Assembly: GCA_041694835.1 (NCBI GenBank)
Contig: JBGFRZ010000051.1
Coordinates: 1 to 14,107, forward strand
DNA length: 14,107 nucleotides
Direction: 5' to 3'
Source of the DNA: Ignavibacteria bacterium
GTDB taxonomy: Bacteria > Elusimicrobiota > Endomicrobiia > PHAN01
Part shown: positions 4,613-14,107 of the stretch, one piece after another
How positions within the stretch are numbered: position 1 is the stretch's first letter
Layout of the letters: every line of letters starts with the position of its first letter
The notes under the pieces: generated by a model
The model's database searches: none
What the model saw: the letters and a program-made list of their open reading frames with translations, nothing else
Told to the model about the DNA's origin: nothing
Position numbers and translations under genes: made by a program

Positions 4613-4618
4613 AAAGGC

Positions 4619-4668
4619 AGATACATGATGCAAGATACAGGTAGAGACAAATGTAGAAGGGTAGAAAA
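4619..4668 (+). repeat. Degenerate purine-rich short tandem repeats (AGATACA-TGATGCA-AGATACA; GTAGAAGG-GTAGAAAA)
   Basis: 7-mers at 4619-4639 and 8-mers at 4653-4668 fill the gap between the giant gene's stop and the MNT start. Confidence 0.5.
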
Positions 4669-4671
4669 GTA

Positions 4672-4962
4672 ATGAGTAATTATTTGGAAATATTAAGGCG
4701 GAAAATTACCGAATTATTTAAGGACGAAGACATACAAATATTTTTATTTGGTTCAAGAGCGCGCAACAACGCTTCAAATGTATCTGACATTGATATCGGA
4801 GTAATACCAAACACTGACTCGGCCAGAAAGAAACTCACGTTATTCAAGGGAAGCATAGAGGATTTGAATATACCTTATAAGATAGAGGTTGTAAATTTCA
4901 AGGAGGTCTCGCAAGAATTTAAGGAAGAAGCGCTCAAAAACAAGGTTGTATGGAAATACTAA
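4672..4962 (+). CDS. Minimal nucleotidyltransferase (MNT) antitoxin, MntA-like
   Basis: 96 aa with the GS-x10-DxD motif (LFGSRARNNASNVSDID). It overlaps the downstream HEPN gene by 13 nt. Confidence 0.9.
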   Translation: MSNYLEILRRKITELFKDEDIQIFLFGSRARNNASNVSDIDIGVIPNTDSARKKLTLFKGSIEDLNIPYKIEVVNFKEVSQEFKEEALKNKVVWKY

Positions 4963-5339
4963 AATTGCGATGCGACGATGCGCTCAAAGCGCTTGGCACA
5001 CTTGAAGAAATATTAAAAGAGCCGTATTCGGTTATAGTTCGCGATGCCGCCATACAAAGATTTGAATATACTTTCGAGGCATTGTGGAAATTTTTGAAAG
5101 AGTATCTGAAAGAGAAAGAAGGTGTTATATCCAATTCGCCGAAATCATGTTTTAGAGAGATTTTCTCGCTTGGTTTCATAACGGAAGATGAGACAATCGC
5201 GTATATGGAAATGACTGACACAAGGAATGAAACATCGCATACGTACAAGGAAGAAATGGCGAAAATAATTTATGATAAAATTGCTGGATATTTTACCTTG
5301 ATGAAAAATATTTTAGATAAAATAAAGGTAGAAAGATGA
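4950..5339 (+). CDS. HEPN-domain protein (HI0074 / nucleotidyltransferase substrate-binding family), putative RNase toxin
   Basis: 'RDAAIQRFEYTFEALWK', 'SPKSCFRE', and an intact Rx4HxY motif (RNETSHTY). It is paired with the MNT gene. Confidence 0.9.
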   Translation: MEILKLRCDDALKALGTLEEILKEPYSVIVRDAAIQRFEYTFEALWKFLKEYLKEKEGVISNSPKSCFREIFSLGFITEDETIAYMEMTDTRNETSHTYKEEMAKIIYDKIAGYFTLMKNILDKIKVER

Positions 5340-5548
5340 AAAAACGAAATATGAAAAAAATTTGGGCGAATGTATCGTCGTCATTTAATGAGTCTGAAAA
5401 ATTTGAAAAAAAGTATAATGCAAGTAAAACACCACGACAACTTTTGAGTGATATTCAGGTATGCAGAGAGCAGTATTATAAATTGAGAGGATGTCTTGAA
5501 GGTAGAAAAGGACTACGAAGAGTTTTTAAGATTGTTAAACAAACATAA
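5336..5548 (+). CDS. Small basic hypothetical protein, probable partner of the downstream nucleotidyltransferase
   Basis: ATGA overlap with the HEPN stop. The 'Y..SKTPRQLL..IQVCREQ' pattern resembles small ORFs found beside DUF6036-type NTases. The start could instead be ATG 5351. Confidence 0.6.
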   Translation: MKKRNMKKIWANVSSSFNESEKFEKKYNASKTPRQLLSDIQVCREQYYKLRGCLEGRKGLRRVFKIVKQT

Positions 5549-5936
5549 GGTCAAGTATTGCATAACCGGCTCTTTCGCCGTCGGTATTTATGGTTATGCG
5601 CGATATACAAAAGACATTGATATTTTAGTTGAGCCATCTGAGAAAAACGCTATAAGAATACTAAGAGCACTTAAAAATTTCGGATTTGGCGGAGTCGGAT
5701 TGAAGACGGGCGATTTTACAAAAAATGGAAATATAATTCAGTTGGGGTATGAACCCGTCAGAATAGACCTTATGACTGCAATAAGCGGTGCGGGTTTTAA
5801 TGAGGTTTGGAGAACGAAGAAAGAAATGTTTTTCGGTAAGACAAAAGCATTTTTCATAGGAAAGAAAGAATTGCTCAAAACAAAAAGAAAAACGGCACGA
5901 AAACAGGACTTGCTTGATATTTTGAAAATAAAATGA
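5496..5936 (+). CDS. Nucleotidyltransferase-fold protein (DUF6036-like)
   Basis: 'KYCITGSFAVGIYGYARYTKDIDILV' (G-x-x-A...G..R.T.DxD) and C-terminal 'K..TARKQDLLD'. TTG start with GAGAGGA about 5 nt upstream. Confidence 0.8.
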   Translation: MKVEKDYEEFLRLLNKHKVKYCITGSFAVGIYGYARYTKDIDILVEPSEKNAIRILRALKNFGFGGVGLKTGDFTKNGNIIQLGYEPVRIDLMTAISGAGFNEVWRTKKEMFFGKTKAFFIGKKELLKTKRKTARKQDLLDILKIK

Positions 5937-6997
5937 AAAAACTTACTAAATCAGTGATTAAGCAAATAGCGATTAAGCGATTAAGTGAAAAACACTATTT
6001 GCTATTTGCTATTCGCTATTTGCTATCCACTATTTGCTATTTGCTATTTACTACTTGCTATCTTTACGGCGCTTTTAAGGAAAACATCTGGACGGCTCGC
6101 ACTGCTGCGATGGGCGGGGCGTTTTCTGCCGTCTCCGATGATGTCTCGTCGACAATATTCAATCCCGCGGGACTCGCTCAGATTGAAAGAAACGAAGCCA
6201 ATTTTACCTACGCTCAGAAATTTTTGAATCTTCCCAATGTTCAAACGTCCAATATGAACGGTCTTTTTGGATATACAGTGCCGAAAATCGGAGCGTTCGG
6301 TCTGGGGTATCTCTCAAGCGGTGTATCTGATTTATACACAGAGCAATCCATTATTTTAACATACTCTGCGCCGCTTCATATCTTGCTCGGCGAAAAAACC
6401 GTGACCGTTGCCAGAAGAACAAAAGAATTTCCAATTTTACCCATTCCAATTTATGCGGGTTTAAATATAAAATATCTTTCTGTCGGATATAATCTGGACG
6501 AGAAAACTAAATTGAGGAGCGGCGGCGACCCTGTTTTTAAAGACGGGACTTCAAAAGGCGGAGTTGCGGTTGACATCGGATTTTTGGTTATGCCCCTTGA
6601 AAAACTCTCAGCGGCGCTTTCGGTGAAGAATCTTTTAACGCCAGATGTGGGACTTAAAATATCTGAAACTGTGCCTCTGGAGTTAACGCTCGGCGGTGGC
6701 TACAAGTTTGGGGATGCGGGAGTTTTTGAGGATTTGAAAGTTTCTTTGGATTTGTCGAACAGGATTCCGCAGGGCGCCTCTCCCGAGTTCAATTGGCGAT
6801 TTGGTGTAGAGTCATGGTTTAGCTATCACAGATATGCGGCGCGGCTCGGCCTCAACAATACCGAAATCGCTTTGGGCGGTGGAATAATTCAGAGCTTGGG
6901 TCATGTAGAGCTTCAGTTGGATTATTCATTTACCATGCCGATGCATCTTTCTGATAATTTTGGCTCTCACCGCCTCTCTTTGTCTACGCGTTTCTAA
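5933..6997 (+). CDS. PorV/PorQ/PorP-like outer-membrane beta-barrel (T9SS-associated, FadL-like superfamily)
   Basis: Signal peptide ending LYG/AF, then 'ARTAAMGGAFSAVSDD...FNPAGLAQ', alternating beta-strand patterns, and a C-terminal 'HRLSLSTRF' ending in Phe. Confidence 0.8.
   Translation: MKKLTKSVIKQIAIKRLSEKHYLLFAIRYLLSTICYLLFTTCYLYGAFKENIWTARTAAMGGAFSAVSDDVSSTIFNPAGLAQIERNEANFTYAQKFLNLPNVQTSNMNGLFGYTVPKIGAFGLGYLSSGVSDLYTEQSIILTYSAPLHILLGEKTVTVARRTKEFPILPIPIYAGLNIKYLSVGYNLDEKTKLRSGGDPVFKDGTSKGGVAVDIGFLVMPLEKLSAALSVKNLLTPDVGLKISETVPLELTLGGGYKFGDAGVFEDLKVSLDLSNRIPQGASPEFNWRFGVESWFSYHRYAARLGLNNTEIALGGGIIQSLGHVELQLDYSFTMPMHLSDNFGSHRLSLSTRF
5956..6064 (+). repeat. GATTAAGC 8-mer arm followed by ten CTATTTG-type heptamers inside the barrel's signal-peptide coding region
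   Basis: GATTAAG(C/T) at 5956, 5971 and 5979. Heptamers run 5995-6064. AGCAAATAGCGA (5961-5972) is the exact reverse complement of TCGCTATTTGCT (6013-6024). Confidence 0.9.
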
Positions 6998-8020: not shown

Positions 8021-8503
8021 ATGGATTACTATGAATTTTTTAAAAAGTTAAACGAAAAGAATGTCAAATATATCACAGTCGGCGGTCTTGCCGTAAATCT
8101 GCACGGTATACCACGTCTTACATACGACATAGACCTTATTGTTGAGATGAGCGATGAAAACATACAGGTTCTTATGAAATTATTGAACGAAATGGGATAT
8201 AAGCCAAAAATCCCCGTCAACATCTTGGATTTCGCAAATATGCAAAAAAGGAAAGAGTGGATTGAAAACAAAAATATGAAAGCATTTTGTCTTGTAAGCG
8301 ACAAGTTGGCCATAAGAGAGGTGGATATAGTCGTAAACACTCGGGTCAACTACGATTCTGCAAAAAAGAATGTCGTATTTTATGATTTGTATGACACAAA
8401 AATCGCGACTGTGGGCATCGACGACCTTATTAGAATGAAAAAAAACACAGGCAGAAAACAAGATGAAACGGATATAGAACATTTAAGAAGAATTAAAAAG
8501 TGA
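8021..8503 (+). CDS. Nucleotidyltransferase-fold protein (DUF6036-like), second copy
   Basis: 'KYITVGGLAVNLHGIPRLTYDIDLIV' and C-terminal 'DLIRMKKNTGRKQDETDIEHL'. Confidence 0.85.
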   Translation: MDYYEFFKKLNEKNVKYITVGGLAVNLHGIPRLTYDIDLIVEMSDENIQVLMKLLNEMGYKPKIPVNILDFANMQKRKEWIENKNMKAFCLVSDKLAIREVDIVVNTRVNYDSAKKNVVFYDLYDTKIATVGIDDLIRMKKNTGRKQDETDIEHLRRIKK

Positions 8504-8706
8504 AAAACTCGCATACGACAAAACCCGTTGAAAAAATCGAGGTCAAAGGCTTTTCTTATTATATTGGCGACGAAATGCTCAAAGAGTATAGTGCGCTCTC
8601 TGTGGAAAAAAAACTCGCGTGGCTACATTCCGCTAATGTATTTGAAAATGGATTAAGCGCGAAAGTCAGAATACTTCATGAGAAATTCAGAAAAGCGAAA
8701 ATGTAA
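8500..8706 (+). CDS. Small hypothetical protein coupled to the nucleotidyltransferase
   Basis: GTGA overlap with the upstream stop. 68 aa with the helical motif 'LKEYSALSVEKKLAWL'. Confidence 0.65.
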   Translation: MKNSHTTKPVEKIEVKGFSYYIGDEMLKEYSALSVEKKLAWLHSANVFENGLSAKVRILHEKFRKAKM

Positions 8707-9462
8707 TTGGGGACGGTCCTCAATTATCAGTATGGTTCTGTAAAATGTGGTAAAAAATGGGAAGATTAGCGAGATTTATTCCTGGAAATTCGTATTTTCA
8801 TGTTTTGTCACGCGGCAACAATCGGCAGAAAGTATTTTTTGACGTTTCAGATTATGAAAATTTCATAAAAATATTGGTGTTTTGCAAAGGACGTTTTTCA
8901 TGGCGCGTCATTCACTATGTATTGATGAGCAATCACTACCATCTGATTGTTTATAATGAAACGCCTAAAAATTTAAGTGACGGGGTAAAGATGTTGAATC
9001 AGAGTTATGTTAAATACTACCGAAAAAAATATCAGGGATGCGGACACCTTTGGCAAGATAGGTTCAAAAGTTTCGTGATAGAGGATGGCAGATATATCTT
9101 GGAATGCGGGAGGTATATAGAATTGAATCCCATCAATGCCGATATAATTGAACGTCCCGAAGATTACAAATATAGCAGTTATAGTTTTTACGCTTTTGGC
9201 AAGAAAAATTCGCTGATAGATTATAATCCGGAGTATTTGAGATTATCGGATGATTTTGAAAGAAGGCGGTTTATTTATCGTGAGTTTGTTCAAAATGGAT
9301 TAAAGGAAAGGCGTGGGATTGAGCGATATTTCCGGACAGGATTTTATGGCAGCGATGAGGGAAAAAGAAAATATGACACATTGGGATTGCGCTCCAGGAA
9401 TTTCAAGACAGGTCCCCGGTCACCAAGAAGCAGTAGTTGCCAATTGAGGACCGTCCCCAATT
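8705..9462 (+). mobile_element. RAYT-type element bounded by perfect 21-bp inverted repeats
   Basis: AATTGGGGACGGTCCTCAATT (8705-8725) and its exact reverse complement AATTGAGGACCGTCCCCAATT (9442-9462) enclose a Y1 HUH transposase. Each end is itself a near-perfect palindrome. Confidence 0.8.
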
Positions 9463-9467
9463 CCTGA
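8757..9467 (+). CDS. rayT: REP-associated tyrosine transposase (RAYT, Y1_Tnp/IS200-like HUH superfamily)
   Basis: 'YFHVLSRGNNRQKVF', HUH motif 'YVLMSNHYHL', 'HLWQDRFKS', catalytic Tyr region 'RYIELNP', and 'DYKYSSY'. Confidence 0.9.
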   Translation: MGRLARFIPGNSYFHVLSRGNNRQKVFFDVSDYENFIKILVFCKGRFSWRVIHYVLMSNHYHLIVYNETPKNLSDGVKMLNQSYVKYYRKKYQGCGHLWQDRFKSFVIEDGRYILECGRYIELNPINADIIERPEDYKYSSYSFYAFGKKNSLIDYNPEYLRLSDDFERRRFIYREFVQNGLKERRGIERYFRTGFYGSDEGKRKYDTLGLRSRNFKTGPRSPRSSSCQLRTVPNS

Positions 9468-9508: not shown

Positions 9509-11068
9509 ATGAATTCTTTTGTAGTATCAATATTCGGTATCGCACTTACTCTGTTATTTTATTTCAGTGATTTGAGTGCGCAAGAGGTTTTATTAAGTGA
9601 GAATTTTGAGGGTGTTAGCGTCGGACAACTGCCTCCTGGATGGGCCAAATACGGCACAGGCAGTTTCGGCGTTGTCGACGCCGACCCGTCAAATCTCAAT
9701 AGAAAATCTCTGCGGATAAGCTCCAACACAATTTCCGACAAAACTTCGGTGTCCACAATTTACGTTTATTTCGTCATTCAGACGACGCCCGGCTACACTT
9801 ACAGTTTTTCATCGGATATTTACGATAATTCTGCCACCACATCCACTATTTCCATTTACTGGTATCCAACTGCGGACGGTTCGGGTTCCAATGTTGGCAT
9901 TGTAGAGAGCGATATGAGTGTCGACTCCGCAGTATCGTGGAGGAACCTGAATGTGAAAGACGATGCCCCATCCGGCGTCTATTCGGCAAAATTTCGCCTG
10001 AATTTCAAGGTCCCGCGGCCAGCTGGCGATTATTCTATTTTTTATGATAGTGTGACTGTGCTTGCCACTAAGGGTTTTATACCCGAAGATACAATCGGGT
10101 CACTTGACGCTATTATTACGGAAGTGGCGCCGTCTGAATCCCAGGACTGGATAGAATTTTTTGTGCTCGCGGATGGCAATACCTGCGGAATGAGAATCTA
10201 TGAAAACAAGGTGCCGGTTAAAAAACTGCAATGGCTGCCGAAGGGCTCTACTTATTATGTCGGAGCTGATGTTAAAAAAGGCGACTTCATTTTGCTTCGT
10301 TTTAACTCAAACGCTGATGATGAACGGAGTGTCAGGAACGGTGTAATAACTTTTCACACCACGGATTCCGGACTTACCGGCACGGACAACGTGGTGTCTC
10401 TGATGCGGAGCCCGACGAATTACGTCGATGTGTGCGCATATTCAAATTACGATGGTACCTTATCGGCTGACAATATACGAGAATTTGGCAATGCAATGAT
10501 TGCTGGCCTATGGATGCCTTCCATATCCACTGCCACGGCGACTAAATCAGAATTAGAAAATAACATGGTGGGTAAATGGACAGAAAAATCGGGGAGTGCC
10601 ATTGTAAGAAAAGTCAAAAATGTCGCGGGCAGCCGACTGCCTGTGCTCAATACCGATGTCGCCGCGTCTAAAGACGCTTGGGAAATAAAAACAACACAGA
10701 CGCCCGGCAGAGGATACACTTTTATCGAAATAGAACCCATTGCTCTAAAAATAAAAGGTCCAAATCCGTTTAACTCGCTCAAGCAGAAAGTTGAACTTAC
10801 TTTTAGCATAGGTGATAAAAGCATCAAAACCCTTCGGGTCTTTGACGTGAAAGGCAGGGAAATCAGACGTTTAATTGACCAGGACAAAAAATACGACGCT
10901 TCATCGCTTGGCGGCATAGGCGCCGATATAGTTTACTGGGACGGTAAGGATTCCGATGGCGACAGAGTCCCGACGGGAATATATATATTGCATCTTGAAG
11001 CGTATGATGCTACATCAGGTGAAACTTCTAAAACATTTGCAACAGTCGGGGTCTTCAGGGGAAAGTAA
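9509..11068 (+). CDS. Secreted CBM-like + lamin-tail-domain protein with a FlgD-Ig/T9SS-like C-terminal domain
   Basis: Signal peptide ending DLSA/Q; 'ENFE...PPGW...IFYDSV'; LTD 'IITEVAPSESQDWIEF'; C-terminal 'PNPFN...RVFDVKGREIRRL...YWDGKDSDGDRVPTGIYI'. Confidence 0.85.
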   Translation: MNSFVVSIFGIALTLLFYFSDLSAQEVLLSENFEGVSVGQLPPGWAKYGTGSFGVVDADPSNLNRKSLRISSNTISDKTSVSTIYVYFVIQTTPGYTYSFSSDIYDNSATTSTISIYWYPTADGSGSNVGIVESDMSVDSAVSWRNLNVKDDAPSGVYSAKFRLNFKVPRPAGDYSIFYDSVTVLATKGFIPEDTIGSLDAIITEVAPSESQDWIEFFVLADGNTCGMRIYENKVPVKKLQWLPKGSTYYVGADVKKGDFILLRFNSNADDERSVRNGVITFHTTDSGLTGTDNVVSLMRSPTNYVDVCAYSNYDGTLSADNIREFGNAMIAGLWMPSISTATATKSELENNMVGKWTEKSGSAIVRKVKNVAGSRLPVLNTDVAASKDAWEIKTTQTPGRGYTFIEIEPIALKIKGPNPFNSLKQKVELTFSIGDKSIKTLRVFDVKGREIRRLIDQDKKYDASSLGGIGADIVYWDGKDSDGDRVPTGIYILHLEAYDATSGETSKTFATVGVFRGK

Positions 11069-11072
11069 AAAT

Positions 11073-11253
11073 AGGTGAAGGTAAAGGTAGAGGTGGAAAG
11101 TTAAAAGCGAATAGTGAATTATGAATTCAGAATTATGAAAAACGACATTGGAAAACTTTTTTCATTCATCATTCATTATTCATTATTCAGCACCGCAAGG
11201 CGGTGCGGCTACTATTTGCTATTCGCTATTTGCTATTCGCTATTTGCTGTTCC
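11073..11253 (+). repeat. Nested repeat arms: (AGGTRR)x4, GAATT-type heptamers, inverted TTCATTA heptamers, a GC hairpin, and CTATT(T/C)G heptamers
   Basis: Hexamers 11073-11096; heptamers 11107-11141; TTCATCA/TTCATTA 11165-11192; GCACCGC-aag-GCGGTGC 11190-11206; five CTATT(T/C)G units 11212-11246. Confidence 0.85.
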
Positions 11254-12106
11254 CCGTCTATTCGCTCAGGCAAATATCAGCACCGGCATTGAAGTAATAG
11301 AGATCAATTTCGACGACGATATCGACGACGACGGCTTTGAATGGCTCAAACTACAAAACAGAACCGGCCGTTCCATAGATATTTCCGGATGGAGAGTCGT
11401 AGGAAAAACACTATCGCAAGCGCCCGGTTGGGGCGATATCAAAAACATCCCGCAAGGCGCTACCTTTGTTATTTCCGAGCCCGCTGTCGGTTTAAACAAT
11501 TTTGCCACAAGATATGGTTCATTTAAAAATACCAATAACTATCTTGCCATAGCCAGTGGTAATTTATCGCTCAGCAATACGGGCGGACGCATAACAATAT
11601 CATCGATGACATCGGGGGATATCCAGGATTTCAATTATTATCCCGTAGAAGAGAATTATTCCGTCGTGAAAATATCTTTTGACGCCGACGAAACATTGCG
11701 GTCTTCATGGAGAATTGGGACGCCTGGCGGGACGCCTTTTGAGGTTGGCGCTGTATCGACCGCCCCTGCTACGATTTTGCTTACCATTGACGAAAACACA
11801 AACCCGTTTAATCCCCATGTTTATCAATCTGTTGCCATTAACTTTGAATCGGATAGTTCCGCTGTGAAAAATTTGTATATAATTGATGTTACAGGAAAAG
11901 AAGTCGTGAGATTGGTTTCAAATGATATAACGTTTTATGGAGCTTCGCTTGCTGGTATAAATAAAGCCATACTATATTGGAACGGGAAAAATTTTGCCGG
12001 CGAGATAGTCCCCGTCGGTATTTATGTAGTGTGCTTTGAAACCGTCGATACGAACAAAAAAATCAACCGTCTTAAAAGGGTTGTTGTCGTCGGCAGACAA
12101 TTTTAA
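11114..12106 (+). CDS. Secreted lamin-tail-domain protein with a FlgD-Ig/T9SS-like C-terminal domain
   Basis: Repeat-encoded signal peptide ending RLFA/Q; LTD 'IEINFD...FEWLKLQN...IDISGWRV...LSNTGGRITI...GTPGG'; C-terminal 'TNPFNP...IIDVTGKEV...WNGKNFAGEIVPVGIY'. The start is GTG 11114 or ATG 11135. Confidence 0.8.
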   Translation: MNYEFRIMKNDIGKLFSFIIHYSLFSTARRCGYYLLFAICYSLFAVPRLFAQANISTGIEVIEINFDDDIDDDGFEWLKLQNRTGRSIDISGWRVVGKTLSQAPGWGDIKNIPQGATFVISEPAVGLNNFATRYGSFKNTNNYLAIASGNLSLSNTGGRITISSMTSGDIQDFNYYPVEENYSVVKISFDADETLRSSWRIGTPGGTPFEVGAVSTAPATILLTIDENTNPFNPHVYQSVAINFESDSSAVKNLYIIDVTGKEVVRLVSNDITFYGASLAGINKAILYWNGKNFAGEIVPVGIYVVCFETVDTNKKINRLKRVVVVGRQF

Positions 12107-12192
12107 CACACCCCCGCCCCCTCTTGATAGAGGGGAAAAAGACGCACTTGATATTGAATGTCAAATTCAACATAAATTTAGGGTGTGTTAAA
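12102..12192. repeat. 91-bp REPIN/MITE-like element with 12-bp terminal inverted repeats and an internal REP-like hairpin
   Basis: TTTAACACACCC (12102-12113) is the exact reverse complement of GGGTGTGTTAAA (12181-12192). Internal CCCCTCT-tgat-AGAGGGG at 12118-12135. Confidence 0.75.
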
Positions 12193-12204
12193 GAGGTTAA
12201 ATTT

Positions 12205-13998
12205 ATGAAAAAACTAATAATGCGCAAGAGCACAAGTGCACAAGAGCGCAAGGGACAAGACAATGCAGCAGAGCAGCAGAGCAGCAGAGCAGTGGCTCGT
12301 GGTTCGTGGTTCGTGGCTCGATTTCAACATCTCCCAGTCACCAGCCACCAGTCACCATCCACTATTTGCTATTCCCTACTGCCTATTGTCTATTGCCTAT
12401 TTTTAACTATTTCCTATTCCCTATTGCCTATTGCCTGTCTTTACGGTGCTTTCGAAGAAAAAATACCTTCCGCGAGAAACGCCGGTCTCTCAGGTGCAGC
12501 AGTTGCTTTGTCAAACGATTCCGATCTTATTTTTTACAACCCCGCATCGCTGGGGCAACTCCCCGGGGCGAGTTTTTCATTCTCTCATACATCGCTCTTT
12601 AATATATCCGATTTATCTTACATGGTTTTCACGGGGGCAGTTCCGACAAGAGCGCTTGGAAGTTTCGGTTTTGCGTATTCTCAGTTTGGTCCGGCAATTT
12701 ATAAAGAAACTGAGGTTGTCCTCTCGCACTCCTTTTCTTTGGGCAGAAAATTTCTTTTCGGCTATAACATAAAAAATCAGTCGGTGAATATTAAAAATTT
12801 CGGCTCGGCAAGCGGAATGGGTATAGATGTCGGCGTCTACAGCATCGTGCTCAATAATGTTGCGGCCGGATTTTCCGTCAAAAACTTAAACAACCCCACA
12901 CTTGGAGCGACGGCAGAAACGCTTCCGCAAAACTACAGAATCGGCATAACATATTTTCCCGAGTTGGGCATTGTTTTTCTTCTTGATATGAGCAAGGATA
13001 TTCTGGCGGATGAACTTTCATATCATGCCGGCGGAGAAATCAATATCACGAAAAACTTTATTTTCAGAGCGGGCACAAGAACAAATCCTGCCGGATTTTC
13101 TGCTGGTTTTGGCGTTGTTTTCAACGCTTTCAGATTAAACTACGCTATGCTCACTCACCCCGTCCTTGACGCTCAGCACTTCTTTACTCTCGGAGTGAGA
13201 TTCGGCCAGGAAGAAGTGGATGTGTCGCCCGGGCGTCGGCCGGGACGCCGCACAAGAAGAAGAACCGCCGACACAAGAGCGCGGGAAGACACCGACGAAG
13301 CGTTAAAGAGTTTGATAGTCAATATAAACACCGCTACGCTCGAAGAGTTAGACCAGATTCCCGGCGTCGGCGCTTTGACTGCCCAAAGAATTATTGACTA
13401 CCGTCAGGAAAGAGGACGGTTTGGCACAATCGAAGATCTGATGAATGTCCAGAGAATAACAAAAAAGACATTCGAAAAAATAAGGCCTTATATAACGGTT
13501 GAAGATGTAAAAAAGGCGCCGAAAGAGATTGCGCCACCTGAAGAAGTTGCACCGAAGCTCGTTCCGAAAGTTCCGGTTCAAAAGACAGAAGAGTTTCCCG
13601 ATGAACCCGAGGAAGAATCATCTGCCCCGGTTTTGCCTCCCGCTAAAGAAAAGAAAAAACCGCAGCCAATAAAAGTCGAGCCGGAAGTTGTTCCGGTTCT
13701 GGATGCTCCCGTTATTCCTGTTGTGCCCCCGGCACCTGCGCCAACGCCTTCAGCCGCGCCGGTCGGTGAAAAAGAAATTGAACCATCTCTCATCAGCGAT
13801 GACCGTTTGGATGTAAACTTAGCGACGGAGCAGGAGTTGGAAGTCGCTGGTTTTACATCTACTCAGGCAAAAAACATAATCAGATATAGAAAGAAGAGCG
13901 GAAATTTCACTTCCGTTGATAACCTGTTGAAAGTGCCCGGGGTTGACGCAAGAACGGTTGAAAGAGTGAGGGAATTGATAAAAGCAAATAGCAAATAG
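12205..13998 (+). CDS. comEA: PorV-like outer-membrane barrel fused to two ComEA-type helix-hairpin-helix DNA-binding domains
   Basis: Start moved to ATG 12205 (AAGAGG upstream) because the ORF-track start lies inside a palindromic element. 'SARNAGLSGAAVAL...YNPASL' is the barrel N-motif. HhH domains are 'VNINTATLEELDQIPGVGALTAQRIIDYRQERGRF' and 'LDVNLATEQEL...AKNIIRYRKKSGNFTSVDNLLKVPGV', separated by a Pro/Glu/Lys-rich linker. The symbol refers to the ComEA domains only. Confidence 0.8.
   Translation: MKKLIMRKSTSAQERKGQDNAAEQQSSRAVARGSWFVARFQHLPVTSHQSPSTICYSLLPIVYCLFLTISYSLLPIACLYGAFEEKIPSARNAGLSGAAVALSNDSDLIFYNPASLGQLPGASFSFSHTSLFNISDLSYMVFTGAVPTRALGSFGFAYSQFGPAIYKETEVVLSHSFSLGRKFLFGYNIKNQSVNIKNFGSASGMGIDVGVYSIVLNNVAAGFSVKNLNNPTLGATAETLPQNYRIGITYFPELGIVFLLDMSKDILADELSYHAGGEINITKNFIFRAGTRTNPAGFSAGFGVVFNAFRLNYAMLTHPVLDAQHFFTLGVRFGQEEVDVSPGRRPGRRTRRRTADTRAREDTDEALKSLIVNINTATLEELDQIPGVGALTAQRIIDYRQERGRFGTIEDLMNVQRITKKTFEKIRPYITVEDVKKAPKEIAPPEEVAPKLVPKVPVQKTEEFPDEPEEESSAPVLPPAKEKKKPQPIKVEPEVVPVLDAPVIPVVPPAPAPTPSAAPVGEKEIEPSLISDDRLDVNLATEQELEVAGFTSTQAKNIIRYRKKSGNFTSVDNLLKVPGVDARTVERVRELIKANSK
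12222..12441 (+). repeat. Mosaic of five tandem-repeat types within the N-terminal coding region
   Basis: GCRCAAGN x4 (12222-12253), GCAGCAGA x3 (12265-12288), GTGGYTC x4 (12292-12319), CCAKYCA x4 (12334-12361), and about 11 CTATTNN-type units (12362-12441). Confidence 0.9.
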
Positions 13999-14012
13999 CG
14001 AATAGCAAATAG
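13984..14012 (+). repeat. (GCRAATA)x4 heptamer arm, the reverse complement of the CTATTTG arrays
   Basis: gcaaata gcaaata gcgaata gcaaata g spans the ComEA-fusion stop codon and ends just before the next ATG. Confidence 0.9.
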
Positions 14013-14013
14013 T

Positions 14014-14107
14014 ATGAGGCCGCATAAAAATCTTAAAATTTGGGAAAAAGTGATGTTGATGATAGAAGAAATTTATCAGCACACTGGCGGTTTTCCGAGA
14101 GAAGAAG
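14014..14107 (+). CDS. Four-helix-bundle protein (23S rRNA intervening-sequence protein / Avd-like family), 3'-truncated
   Basis: Not in the ORF track. ATG 14014 gives MRPHKNLKIWEKVMLMIEEIYQHTGGFPREE, which matches the family N-terminus 'x(H/F)xxLxVWQKAMxLxxEIYxxTxxFPxEE'. Confidence 0.8.
   Translation, partial: MRPHKNLKIWEKVMLMIEEIYQHTGGFPREE

Follow-up and report, generated by a model that had tools for sequence, protein, structure and literature searches.

A probable heptamer-armed cassette carrying an S23p-family four-helix-bundle gene downstream of a ComEA-type gene in an Endomicrobiia genome

The window analyzed here (the whole stretch of 14,107 nt) is the complete contig C41 (JBGFRZ010000051.1) of a 1.9 Mb genome in 89 contigs (GCA_041694835.1, Ignavibacteria bacterium, placed by GTDB in the class Endomicrobiia of the Elusimicrobiota; completeness 97%), and its 3' end holds the beginning of a gene of the four-helix-bundle family PF05635 (S23p) that directly follows a short array of 7-base repeats. 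The gene upstream of the array, at positions 12124..13998 of the plus strand, is an open reading frame (ORF) of 624 amino acids (aa), in which Pfam detects two stretches of ComEA-type HHH_3 domains (E-value 2e-38) behind a beta-barrel-like N-terminal part. Tandem Repeats Finder (TRF) reports at 13983..14012 of the same strand a period-7 array of 4.3 copies with 91% matches and the unit AGCAAAT (GAATTGATAAAAGCAAATAGCAAATAGCGAATAGCAAATAGTATGAGG), that is, a purine-rich (CAAATAG/CGAATAG)n, in which the homology among the cassette copies described below begins. The 624-aa ORF ends in ...ELIKANSK*, with its last four codons (ANSK) and the TAG stop at 13996-13998 inside the array, and the array itself ends 1 nt before the ATG of the four-helix-bundle gene (14014..14107, plus strand), so that tandem heptamers stand just upstream of the ORF start. 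This ATG is located 15 nt past the host stop and opens a run of 31 codons (MRPHKNLKIWEKVMLMIEEIYQHTGGFPREE) that is truncated by the contig end. Translated in three frames, the array contains a stop in each (SK*QIANSK*, ANSK*RIAN, QIANSE*QI), and the three frames of its reverse complement are open and hydrophobic (LFAIRYLLFA, YLLFAICYL, ICYSLFAIC). The two-unit pattern CAAATAGCAAATAG, with one mismatch allowed, occurs 12 times in the window compared with 0.01 expected, and none of 200 shuffles reached 12. A preliminary description of this DNA, made from the letters alone, had called the upstream gene a ComEA fusion with a stop codon supplied by the array, had stated that its unit runs into a stop in any frame, and had placed a four-helix-bundle ORF directly after it; the domain search, the three-frame translation and the position of the ATG agree with this. 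It had also proposed that the motif provides a signal peptide in the other orientation, a prediction with which the open, hydrophobic frames are in line.

The 31-aa fragment on its own has no Pfam match at E <= 0.01. It is identical to residues 1-31 of a paralog, P0001, encoded at C6:3778-4137 on another contig of the same genome, and the end of the window is 98.4% identical to C6:3745-3871 across 127 nt. P0001 scores 119.6 bits on PF05635, for which the cut-off is 33.8 bits, and thus belongs to this family; by sequence it also matches PDB entries 2GSC (E-value 1.7e-26) and 2RLD (E-value 4e-5). For the four-helix-bundle paralogs, the ratio of nonsynonymous to synonymous substitution rates (dN/dS) is 0.00-0.23 in the 9 pairs, out of 11, for which a ratio was obtained, and the protein is therefore kept by purifying selection.

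The complete arrangement can be seen on a single contig in the intact internal paralog at C6:3749-4237, where the S23p ORF is enclosed by stem-closing inverted repeats (29 matches and 1 mismatch between the arms, which form 32 arm-to-arm pairs in the minimum-energy fold); the window's copy is given its right arm on the basis of synteny. Using the intact paralog as the blastn query, we identified left halves of the cassette at the contig ends of C41 (98.4% identity) and C87 (99.2%), right halves at the start of C6 (96.9%) and the end of C79 (96.1%), and, besides C6:3749-4237, a second internal copy at C6:5740-6201. Contig C41 ends inside the four-helix-bundle ORF because the genome contains at least four near-identical copies of the cassette, in which the assembly broke. 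Contig C6 opens on the final 50 nt of a four-helix-bundle gene (ending in EVSRMLEGIIQNLRDRQ and the stop), followed by a start codon that overlaps this stop (ATGA) and by the array (CTATTCG/CTATTTG)n at C6:66-128, which is read as MRKPFTIRYSLFAICLLFAIRYSLFAQQLIDLNTAS / MRKPFTIRYSLFAICLLFAIRYSLFA and encodes the hydrophobic core of the N-terminus of a 787-aa protein. A complementary (CTATTTG)n arm after the four-helix-bundle stop, running into the N-terminus of the next gene, is what the preliminary description had predicted. In the 787-aa protein, Pfam detects HHH_3 (helix-hairpin-helix, HhH) domains only, and the label 'ComEC' considered for it is wrong. In 10 of 11 relatives' loci, its homologue is the gene immediately after the ComEA-type one; identity to the gene downstream of the ComEA-type ortholog is 59% over 472 aa in relative G001 and 64% over 356 aa in relative G002, and the match extends past the HhH repeats in 8 of the other 9 loci. 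In the second split copy, a FlgD-Ig-type secreted protein stands at the end of C87 and a beta-barrel-like protein begins on C79, the usual pair in this genome. Given this match to the downstream ortholog and this usual gene pair, C41 is probably joined to C6, and C87 to C79.

When the four copies are aligned, homology sets in within the left array and stops within the right one. The identical stretch covers the gene, the ATG and the codons for MRKPFT and reaches ~55 nt into the right array, where the copies have a TTA interruption in common; identity then decays within the arrays. At the left ends, three of the copies are 98.4-100% identical to one another and the fourth is 83% identical. No target duplication was seen at the four cassette junctions, where the host flanks are unrelated, and the cassette encodes no transposase, its sole ORF being the four-helix-bundle gene. 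Thus, of the hallmarks of transposons and of MITEs (transposable elements of miniature size with inverted repeats), several near-identical copies with sharp ends at terminal repeats are present, and a transposase and target-site duplications are absent. Judging from the alignment, ends inside the arrays together with differing distal array parts would fit copying by recombination between arrays. The four downstream genes all begin with MRKPFTIRYSLFAI, all in frame, and encode the 787-aa HhH protein, a subtilase with a CHU_C tail, a 311-aa protein for which there is no Pfam match, and a beta-barrel-like protein named from a conserved N-terminal motif; except for the 311-aa protein, they are of secreted type by domain or motif.

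The orthologous junction is empty in the relatives. In all 11 relatives' loci examined, the next gene comes immediately after the ComEA-type gene (at a spacing that ranges from an overlap to about 120 nt), and no four-helix-bundle ORF or heptamer array was found at this junction in any of them. The ComEA-type orthologs end in ...ESITVK* (G001) and ...ESITAR* (G002), and the corresponding end here (...ELIKANSK*) is two residues longer, its ANSK* being encoded by the array. The downstream ortholog in G002 has the N-terminus MKKAISLAAFSVFMAFAAAAILRAAPELVDINTAS, with the ordinary leader MKKAISLAAFSVFMAFAAAAILRA ahead of the conserved ELVDINTAS, whereas here a leader of comparable length is encoded by the ATG of the cassette and its right arm (MRKPFTIRYSLFAICLLFAIRYSLFAQQLIDLNTAS).

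The association between four-helix-bundle genes and complementary arms extends throughout the genome and beyond it. Among the 15 matches to PF05635 in this genome, 12 are near full length, and in 11 of these the flanks are complementary with a score of at least 13 (ten score at least 15), 13 being the 99th percentile of 3000 random control segments; the twelfth is located 115 nt from a contig end. The arm units are lineage-specific and include GGGTRTA, the octamer AGCACAAG (four copies), GTAGATA, GGTTGGA and others. An upstream stop is found 17-43 nt before the four-helix-bundle start in all 12 paralogs. The downstream start overlaps the four-helix-bundle stop (ATGA) in 3 of the 12, each ahead of a protein with a hydrophobic leader; in eight of the other nine the listed start does not form this overlap (five of them lie 17-142 nt past the stop), and for the last one a start was not found. 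The arms pair in the sense-strand minimum-energy fold in 11 of 11 cases (23-58 pairs), with a z-score of -2.5 or lower in 9; the sense fold energy is below the antisense one in 10 of 11, but these energies include the coding region and are not counted as evidence for selection at the RNA level. In 30 relatives, PF05635 matches number 0-5 per genome (17 of the 30 have any) versus 15 here; with flanks counted as complementary at a score of at least 14, 15 of the 22 inspected loci qualify, and most of the rest have arrays on both sides by eye. A single-protein search with one paralog yielded 80 cross-phylum loci in named genomes, 77 of them with enough flank, and 64 of these 77 reach a score of 14 compared with 15 of 77 in a reversed-sequence control; the arm period is 7 in 51 of the 64 loci, 8 in 12 and 9 in one. 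The cross-phylum loci come from Aminicenantes, Omnitrophota, Nitrospirota, candidate-phyla-radiation groups, Bacteroidota, Cyanobacteria, several proteobacterial classes and others. In two related genomes (L025 and L026, from G024 and G016), a four-helix-bundle cassette with GAGTT-type arms is located between two tRNA genes.

Taken together, these observations suggest, with a probability that we put at roughly 0.78, that a heptamer-armed PF05635/S23p cassette lies between the ComEA-type gene and the next gene of the operon, the 787-aa HhH gene, and has the array at 13983-14012 as its 5' arm. This proposal draws on what is directly observed, namely how the element is built, its copies and where they begin and end, the orthologous junctions that lack it, the association that holds across the family and the purifying selection on the protein. 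The preliminary description had proposed the left arm of an occupied cassette, (CAAATAG)n-cargo-(CTATTTG)n, and had looked to a genome-wide link between the paralogs and heptamer arms and to empty versus filled sites; the right arm on C6, the complementary flanks that reach the control percentile in 11 out of 12 full-length paralogs, and a junction that is filled here and empty in the relatives speak for it.

Several points weigh against this interpretation. The right arm of the window's copy sits on another contig, and the cassette ends two further contigs as well; the start of C6 and the end of C79 are identical over the first ~121 nt, and it is therefore by synteny alone that C41 is paired with C6. 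For the window's copy, which may or may not be intact, the middle is unassembled, and two of the four cassette copies are broken, one (C6:3790) with an in-frame TGA and the other (C6:5831-6035) present only as fragments. Arrays of the CAAATAG unit are mostly lone, with a pyrimidine partner within 400 nt in 4 of 38 purine-type blocks. The MRKPFT leader is absent from the genome outside the four copies, one related leader, MKKLFAI..., being found at C6:2511, so that the lone arrays are no more than hypothetical cassette footprints. The commonest unit family, ACAGAGG (42 arrays), matches none of the flanks printed for four-helix-bundle genes. Mismatches within the stems are unbiased (G:T plus T:G, 11; A:C plus C:A, 11), and thus give no indication of selection on the stem as sense RNA. 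Finally, a cut of the stem by RNase III would part the downstream coding sequence from its cassette-borne start codon.

In this view, the cassette is a self-contained insert for gene junctions. Its purine-rich arm, with a stop in every frame, terminates the upstream ORF here, and the stop of the four-helix-bundle gene overlaps (ATGA) a start codon carried by the cassette, from which the frame runs through MRKPF into a pyrimidine-rich arm that is open and hydrophobic in all frames and would replace the downstream protein's own signal peptide. The array-coded leader may work as a signal peptide, and the insertion of a cassette would probably cost the host little. Being complementary, the arms can pair within one strand of either RNA or DNA to form a stem that encloses the gene; the cassette would spread by recombination or gene conversion between arrays and not by a transposase; and the four-helix-bundle protein might act on its own arms. 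A far more speculative extension, which we regard as rather unlikely, is that the cassette is a transposase-free mobile gene with arms that serve as frame-proof adaptors, the purine arm halting whatever frame comes in and the pyrimidine arm, together with the ATG of the cassette, restoring a signal peptide in any frame, so that it could colonise operon junctions ahead of secreted-protein genes; that the pentameric protein reads its own units; and that the lone arrays and empty hairpins, which number in the hundreds in such genomes, are its landing pads or footprints.

Two alternatives are compatible with the cassette and concern what its arms do. The element might be RNA-based, akin to the intervening sequences (IVS) of rRNA, with arms that form a double-stranded stem cut by RNase III, freeing the four-helix-bundle mRNA from the transcript of the operon. 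The pairing of the arms in all 11 sense-strand folds is in line with this possibility, as are the presence of one RNase III gene in the genome (C30:8179-8559) and the example of the Coxiella IVS, which combines an S23p ORF, a 28-bp stem, GACAGAT heptamers and an RNase III cut (PMC4990558); given that G:U does not exceed A:C among the stem mismatches, and that in the window's cassette family the right arm is coding sequence after the start codon, such that cleavage would inactivate the host message, we consider this possible but doubtful. To a similar degree, it is only tentatively that one can propose that the four-helix-bundle protein recognizes the repeats in its own arms, with a role in autoregulation, protection or copying; arm sequence and protein lineage would then be matched. 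Differing lineages within one genome use differing units; the paralogs C52:47911 and C52:36825, which differ by dN 0.004 and dS 0.546, retain the same AGCACAAG arms, and a homologue from G020 with saturated dS has this unit too; AGGG-type arms, like those of C52:44972 itself, are found in 35 of 80 cross-phylum homologues of C52:44972; and GTGA-type arms accompany 12 of 17 homologues of the window's protein versus 22 of the 80 (Fisher p 0.0014), with the arm motifs picked after inspection of the data and the loci not independent. Conversely, the CAAATAG unit of the window's family differs from the GTGA type of its cross-phylum homologues, the loci L017 and L036 from sister genomes share GTGGTTA/GTGGATA arms with proteins that are only 27% identical over 48 aa, and the ACAGAGG family, the commonest, lacks a match among the printed flanks.

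Three further alternatives were weighed. For generic slippage, with an incidental neighborhood in a genome rich in 7-base repeats, speaks that there are 634 period-7 arrays in 443 blocks; perfect repeats with at least three copies are most numerous at period 7 (100), followed by period 8 (13), with no more than 5 for each remaining period between 4 and 12. Of the 443 blocks, 44 contain the stop codon of an ORF that is 100 aa or longer (41 of them purine-rich on the coding strand and none pyrimidine-rich), 100 fall in the first 60 codons of an ORF (66 of them pyrimidine-rich), 108 lie deeper in ORFs and 180 are intergenic. Slippage would leave unexplained the complementary arms of 11 of the 12 paralogs, the persistence of the association across phyla and in relatives that are poor in arrays (0.083 per kb, or 7 arrays in 84 kb of sampled flanks, versus 0.33 per kb here), and the identical interrupted array in the four copies, which implies that it was copied as a unit; these results largely refute it, and we hold it to be highly improbable. 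A phase-variation device, in which gain or loss of 7-base units in the translated right arm shifts the frame between the cassette ATG and the mature protein, has a parallel in Neisseria opa genes, whose leader contains CTCTT repeats. A unit of seven does not divide by three, and the arm, of a length that varies among the copies, separates the start codon from the mature part in four secreted-type proteins; with all four copies in frame and with arrays that are imperfect (CTATTCG mixed with CTATTTG, and the TTA interruption), which lowers slippage, we find this improbable. Least likely of all, to the point of being negligible, is that the protein is an Avd accessory protein of a diversity-generating retroelement: the match of P0001 to the Pfam family bAvd (32 bits) stays below the cut-off of 40 bits, and no match to RVT_1 was detected in the 97% complete genome. 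Avd, which we take to be a distant relative in sequence with the same pentameric four-helix-bundle architecture, requires a reverse transcriptase and template and variable repeats.

Heptamer arrays recur elsewhere in the window and in the genome, among them tandem 7-base units in convergent pairs of the kind described in Xanthomonas. Short-loop (<=140 nt) inverted pairs have the purine-rich, G-over-C arm on the 5' side in 25 of 26 cases and the reverse order in none, and this is the same on either strand. According to TRF, the ORF list and Pfam, the unit is present in the other orientation as (CTATTTG)9.6 at 5995..6061 (plus strand), translated in the N-terminus of a beta-barrel gene (5933-6997) and having no matching left arm. 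At the corresponding junction (4612/5933 in the window), the syntenic locus of the relative G002 (L019:1419-1900) carries a four-helix-bundle cassette with GCAATAG-type arms, whereas in the window the junction, 4613-5936, is filled by genes that Pfam identifies as MNT (4672-4962), HEPN (4950-5339) and a nucleotidyltransferase-like gene (5496-5936), preceded by a degenerate purine-rich run (4613-4671) and followed by the (CTATTTG)n arm; this is possibly a swap of cargo. Another toxin-antitoxin-like pair in the same gene row comprises a DUF6036-type nucleotidyltransferase (8021-8503) and an overlapping 68-aa ORF (8021-8706 for the pair). An empty nested hairpin at 11070..11260 of the plus strand (TRF rows 11073-11252), between the genes 9509-11068 and 11114-12106, consists of purine arms, a loop that bears an ATG, and the pyrimidine arms TCATTCA... 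and (CTATTTG/CTATTCG)n, whose translation gives the leader peptide. The N-terminal region of the ComEA-type ORF itself (12206..12445, plus strand; TRF rows 12221-12443) contains successive 7- and 8-base arrays, purine arms and then the pyrimidine arms CCAGTCA and CTATTGC.

The window also encodes, at 8706-9467, a 236-aa Y1 (IS200-like) transposase that is single in the genome and has a 19-bp inverted repeat, TTGGGGACGGTCCTCAATT; the core of this repeat recurs at 5-7 more sites, so that the gene looks like a REP-associated tyrosine transposase (RAYT) with a small family of repetitive extragenic palindromic (REP) elements. As a candidate for the enzyme that mobilizes the cassettes it was rejected, being single-copy, having its own, different inverted repeat and showing no link to them. 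Likewise, the region C55:35869-36360 was rejected as a cassette: its CAAATAG and CTATTTG arms, 400 nt apart, enclose nested arrays and no gene. In other contigs, a phosphopentomutase-like ORF (C87:3846-5174) has an in-frame hairpin of a purine and a pyrimidine heptamer arm in mid-gene (...EVRGQRSEDREQRTENREERREKIKEKKLISHPSPFTLSALRHFILSPLTSHLSPLNSQL...); a V-type ATPase D-like gene (C75:19900-21000) lies between two multi-layer, near mirror-image heptamer hairpins, with the highest flank-complementarity score in the genome (70.5); and a membrane pyrophosphatase-like gene (C49:15469-17523) is flanked by a long inverted repeat that is not heptameric (score 58).

The closest published system is the 23S rRNA IVS of Coxiella burnetii (Warrier et al. 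2016, PMC4990558), in which, according to the parts of that paper available to us, tandem heptamers stand before the ATG of the S23p ORF in a number that varies among strains and RNase III cleaves at the first repeat; the same source cites S23p-bearing IVS in Leptospira and describes the S23p protein as a pentamer. Common to this IVS and the cassette are a PF05635/S23p ORF within stem-forming terminal inverted repeats, tandem heptamers right before the ATG, a sporadic distribution and ORFs that are often decaying (PMC4990558). Unlike the IVS, the cassette sits between protein-coding genes and not in a 23S rRNA helix, its arms are used as host coding sequence (the upstream stop and the core of the downstream signal peptide), it bears the start codon of the next gene, and it is present in at least four copies in one genome; what is new at this locus is that both arms serve as coding sequence and that the cassette brings along a start codon. 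Inverted pairs of arrays of the heptamer GGGAATC have been described in Xanthomonas (Rehm et al. 2015, PMC4692102), likewise as intergenic 7-base units with many convergent pairs able to form stem-loops; as far as the available part of that source goes, there is one unit per genome, in contrast to the dozens here, and no coding use of the arms is described. In its supplementary table, a 4-unit array overlaps the start of XCC0516, which is called only 'conserved', and the available main text and supplements do not mention 'S23' (PMC4692102). The structure of XCC0516 is PDB 2GSC, which among solved structures is the best match to the cassette protein. The cyanobacterial short tandemly repeated repetitive (STRR) sequences, as cited in PMC4692102, and the TAACTGA repeats of Beggiatoaceae (MacGregor 2015, PMC4679880) are, in what is accessible of these sources, abundant intergenic heptamers near start codons, some overlapping ORF ends; unlike the cassette arms, they are direct repeats with almost no inverted pairs, and the terms 'four helix', 'S23' and 'intervening sequence' are not used in the accessible text of PMC4679880. 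Within the open-licence PMC papers and bioRxiv preprints searched, we found no description of four-helix-bundle genes between inverted heptamer arrays outside rRNA, and heptamer repeats and the S23p/PF05635 family are treated apart. REP/RAYT elements, MITEs and Rickettsia palindromic elements are hairpin-forming repeats that occupy operon junctions and are sometimes tolerated in frame in genes. The cassette differs from all of these in that its arms are tandem arrays of variable units and its cargo is a conserved gene that does not encode a transposase; the Y1 transposase of this genome, with its 19-bp repeat, stands apart from the cassette arms.

Heptamer repeats and the S23p/PF05635 family have been separate puzzles for some thirty years, and here they are seen as one unit. 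The layout of the cassette would spare the operon in that the upstream gene terminates, translation can pass on, and the downstream secreted protein keeps a hydrophobic leader. If the arms indeed serve as frame-proof adaptors, this would tie together the intervening sequences of rRNA, a large protein family of 'unknown' function and the heptamer repeats of bacteria. If this design proves to be general, it would explain the tolerance of such cassettes at sites between essential genes and within rRNA, and would provide an annotation rule for leader peptides encoded by repeats and for contig breaks.

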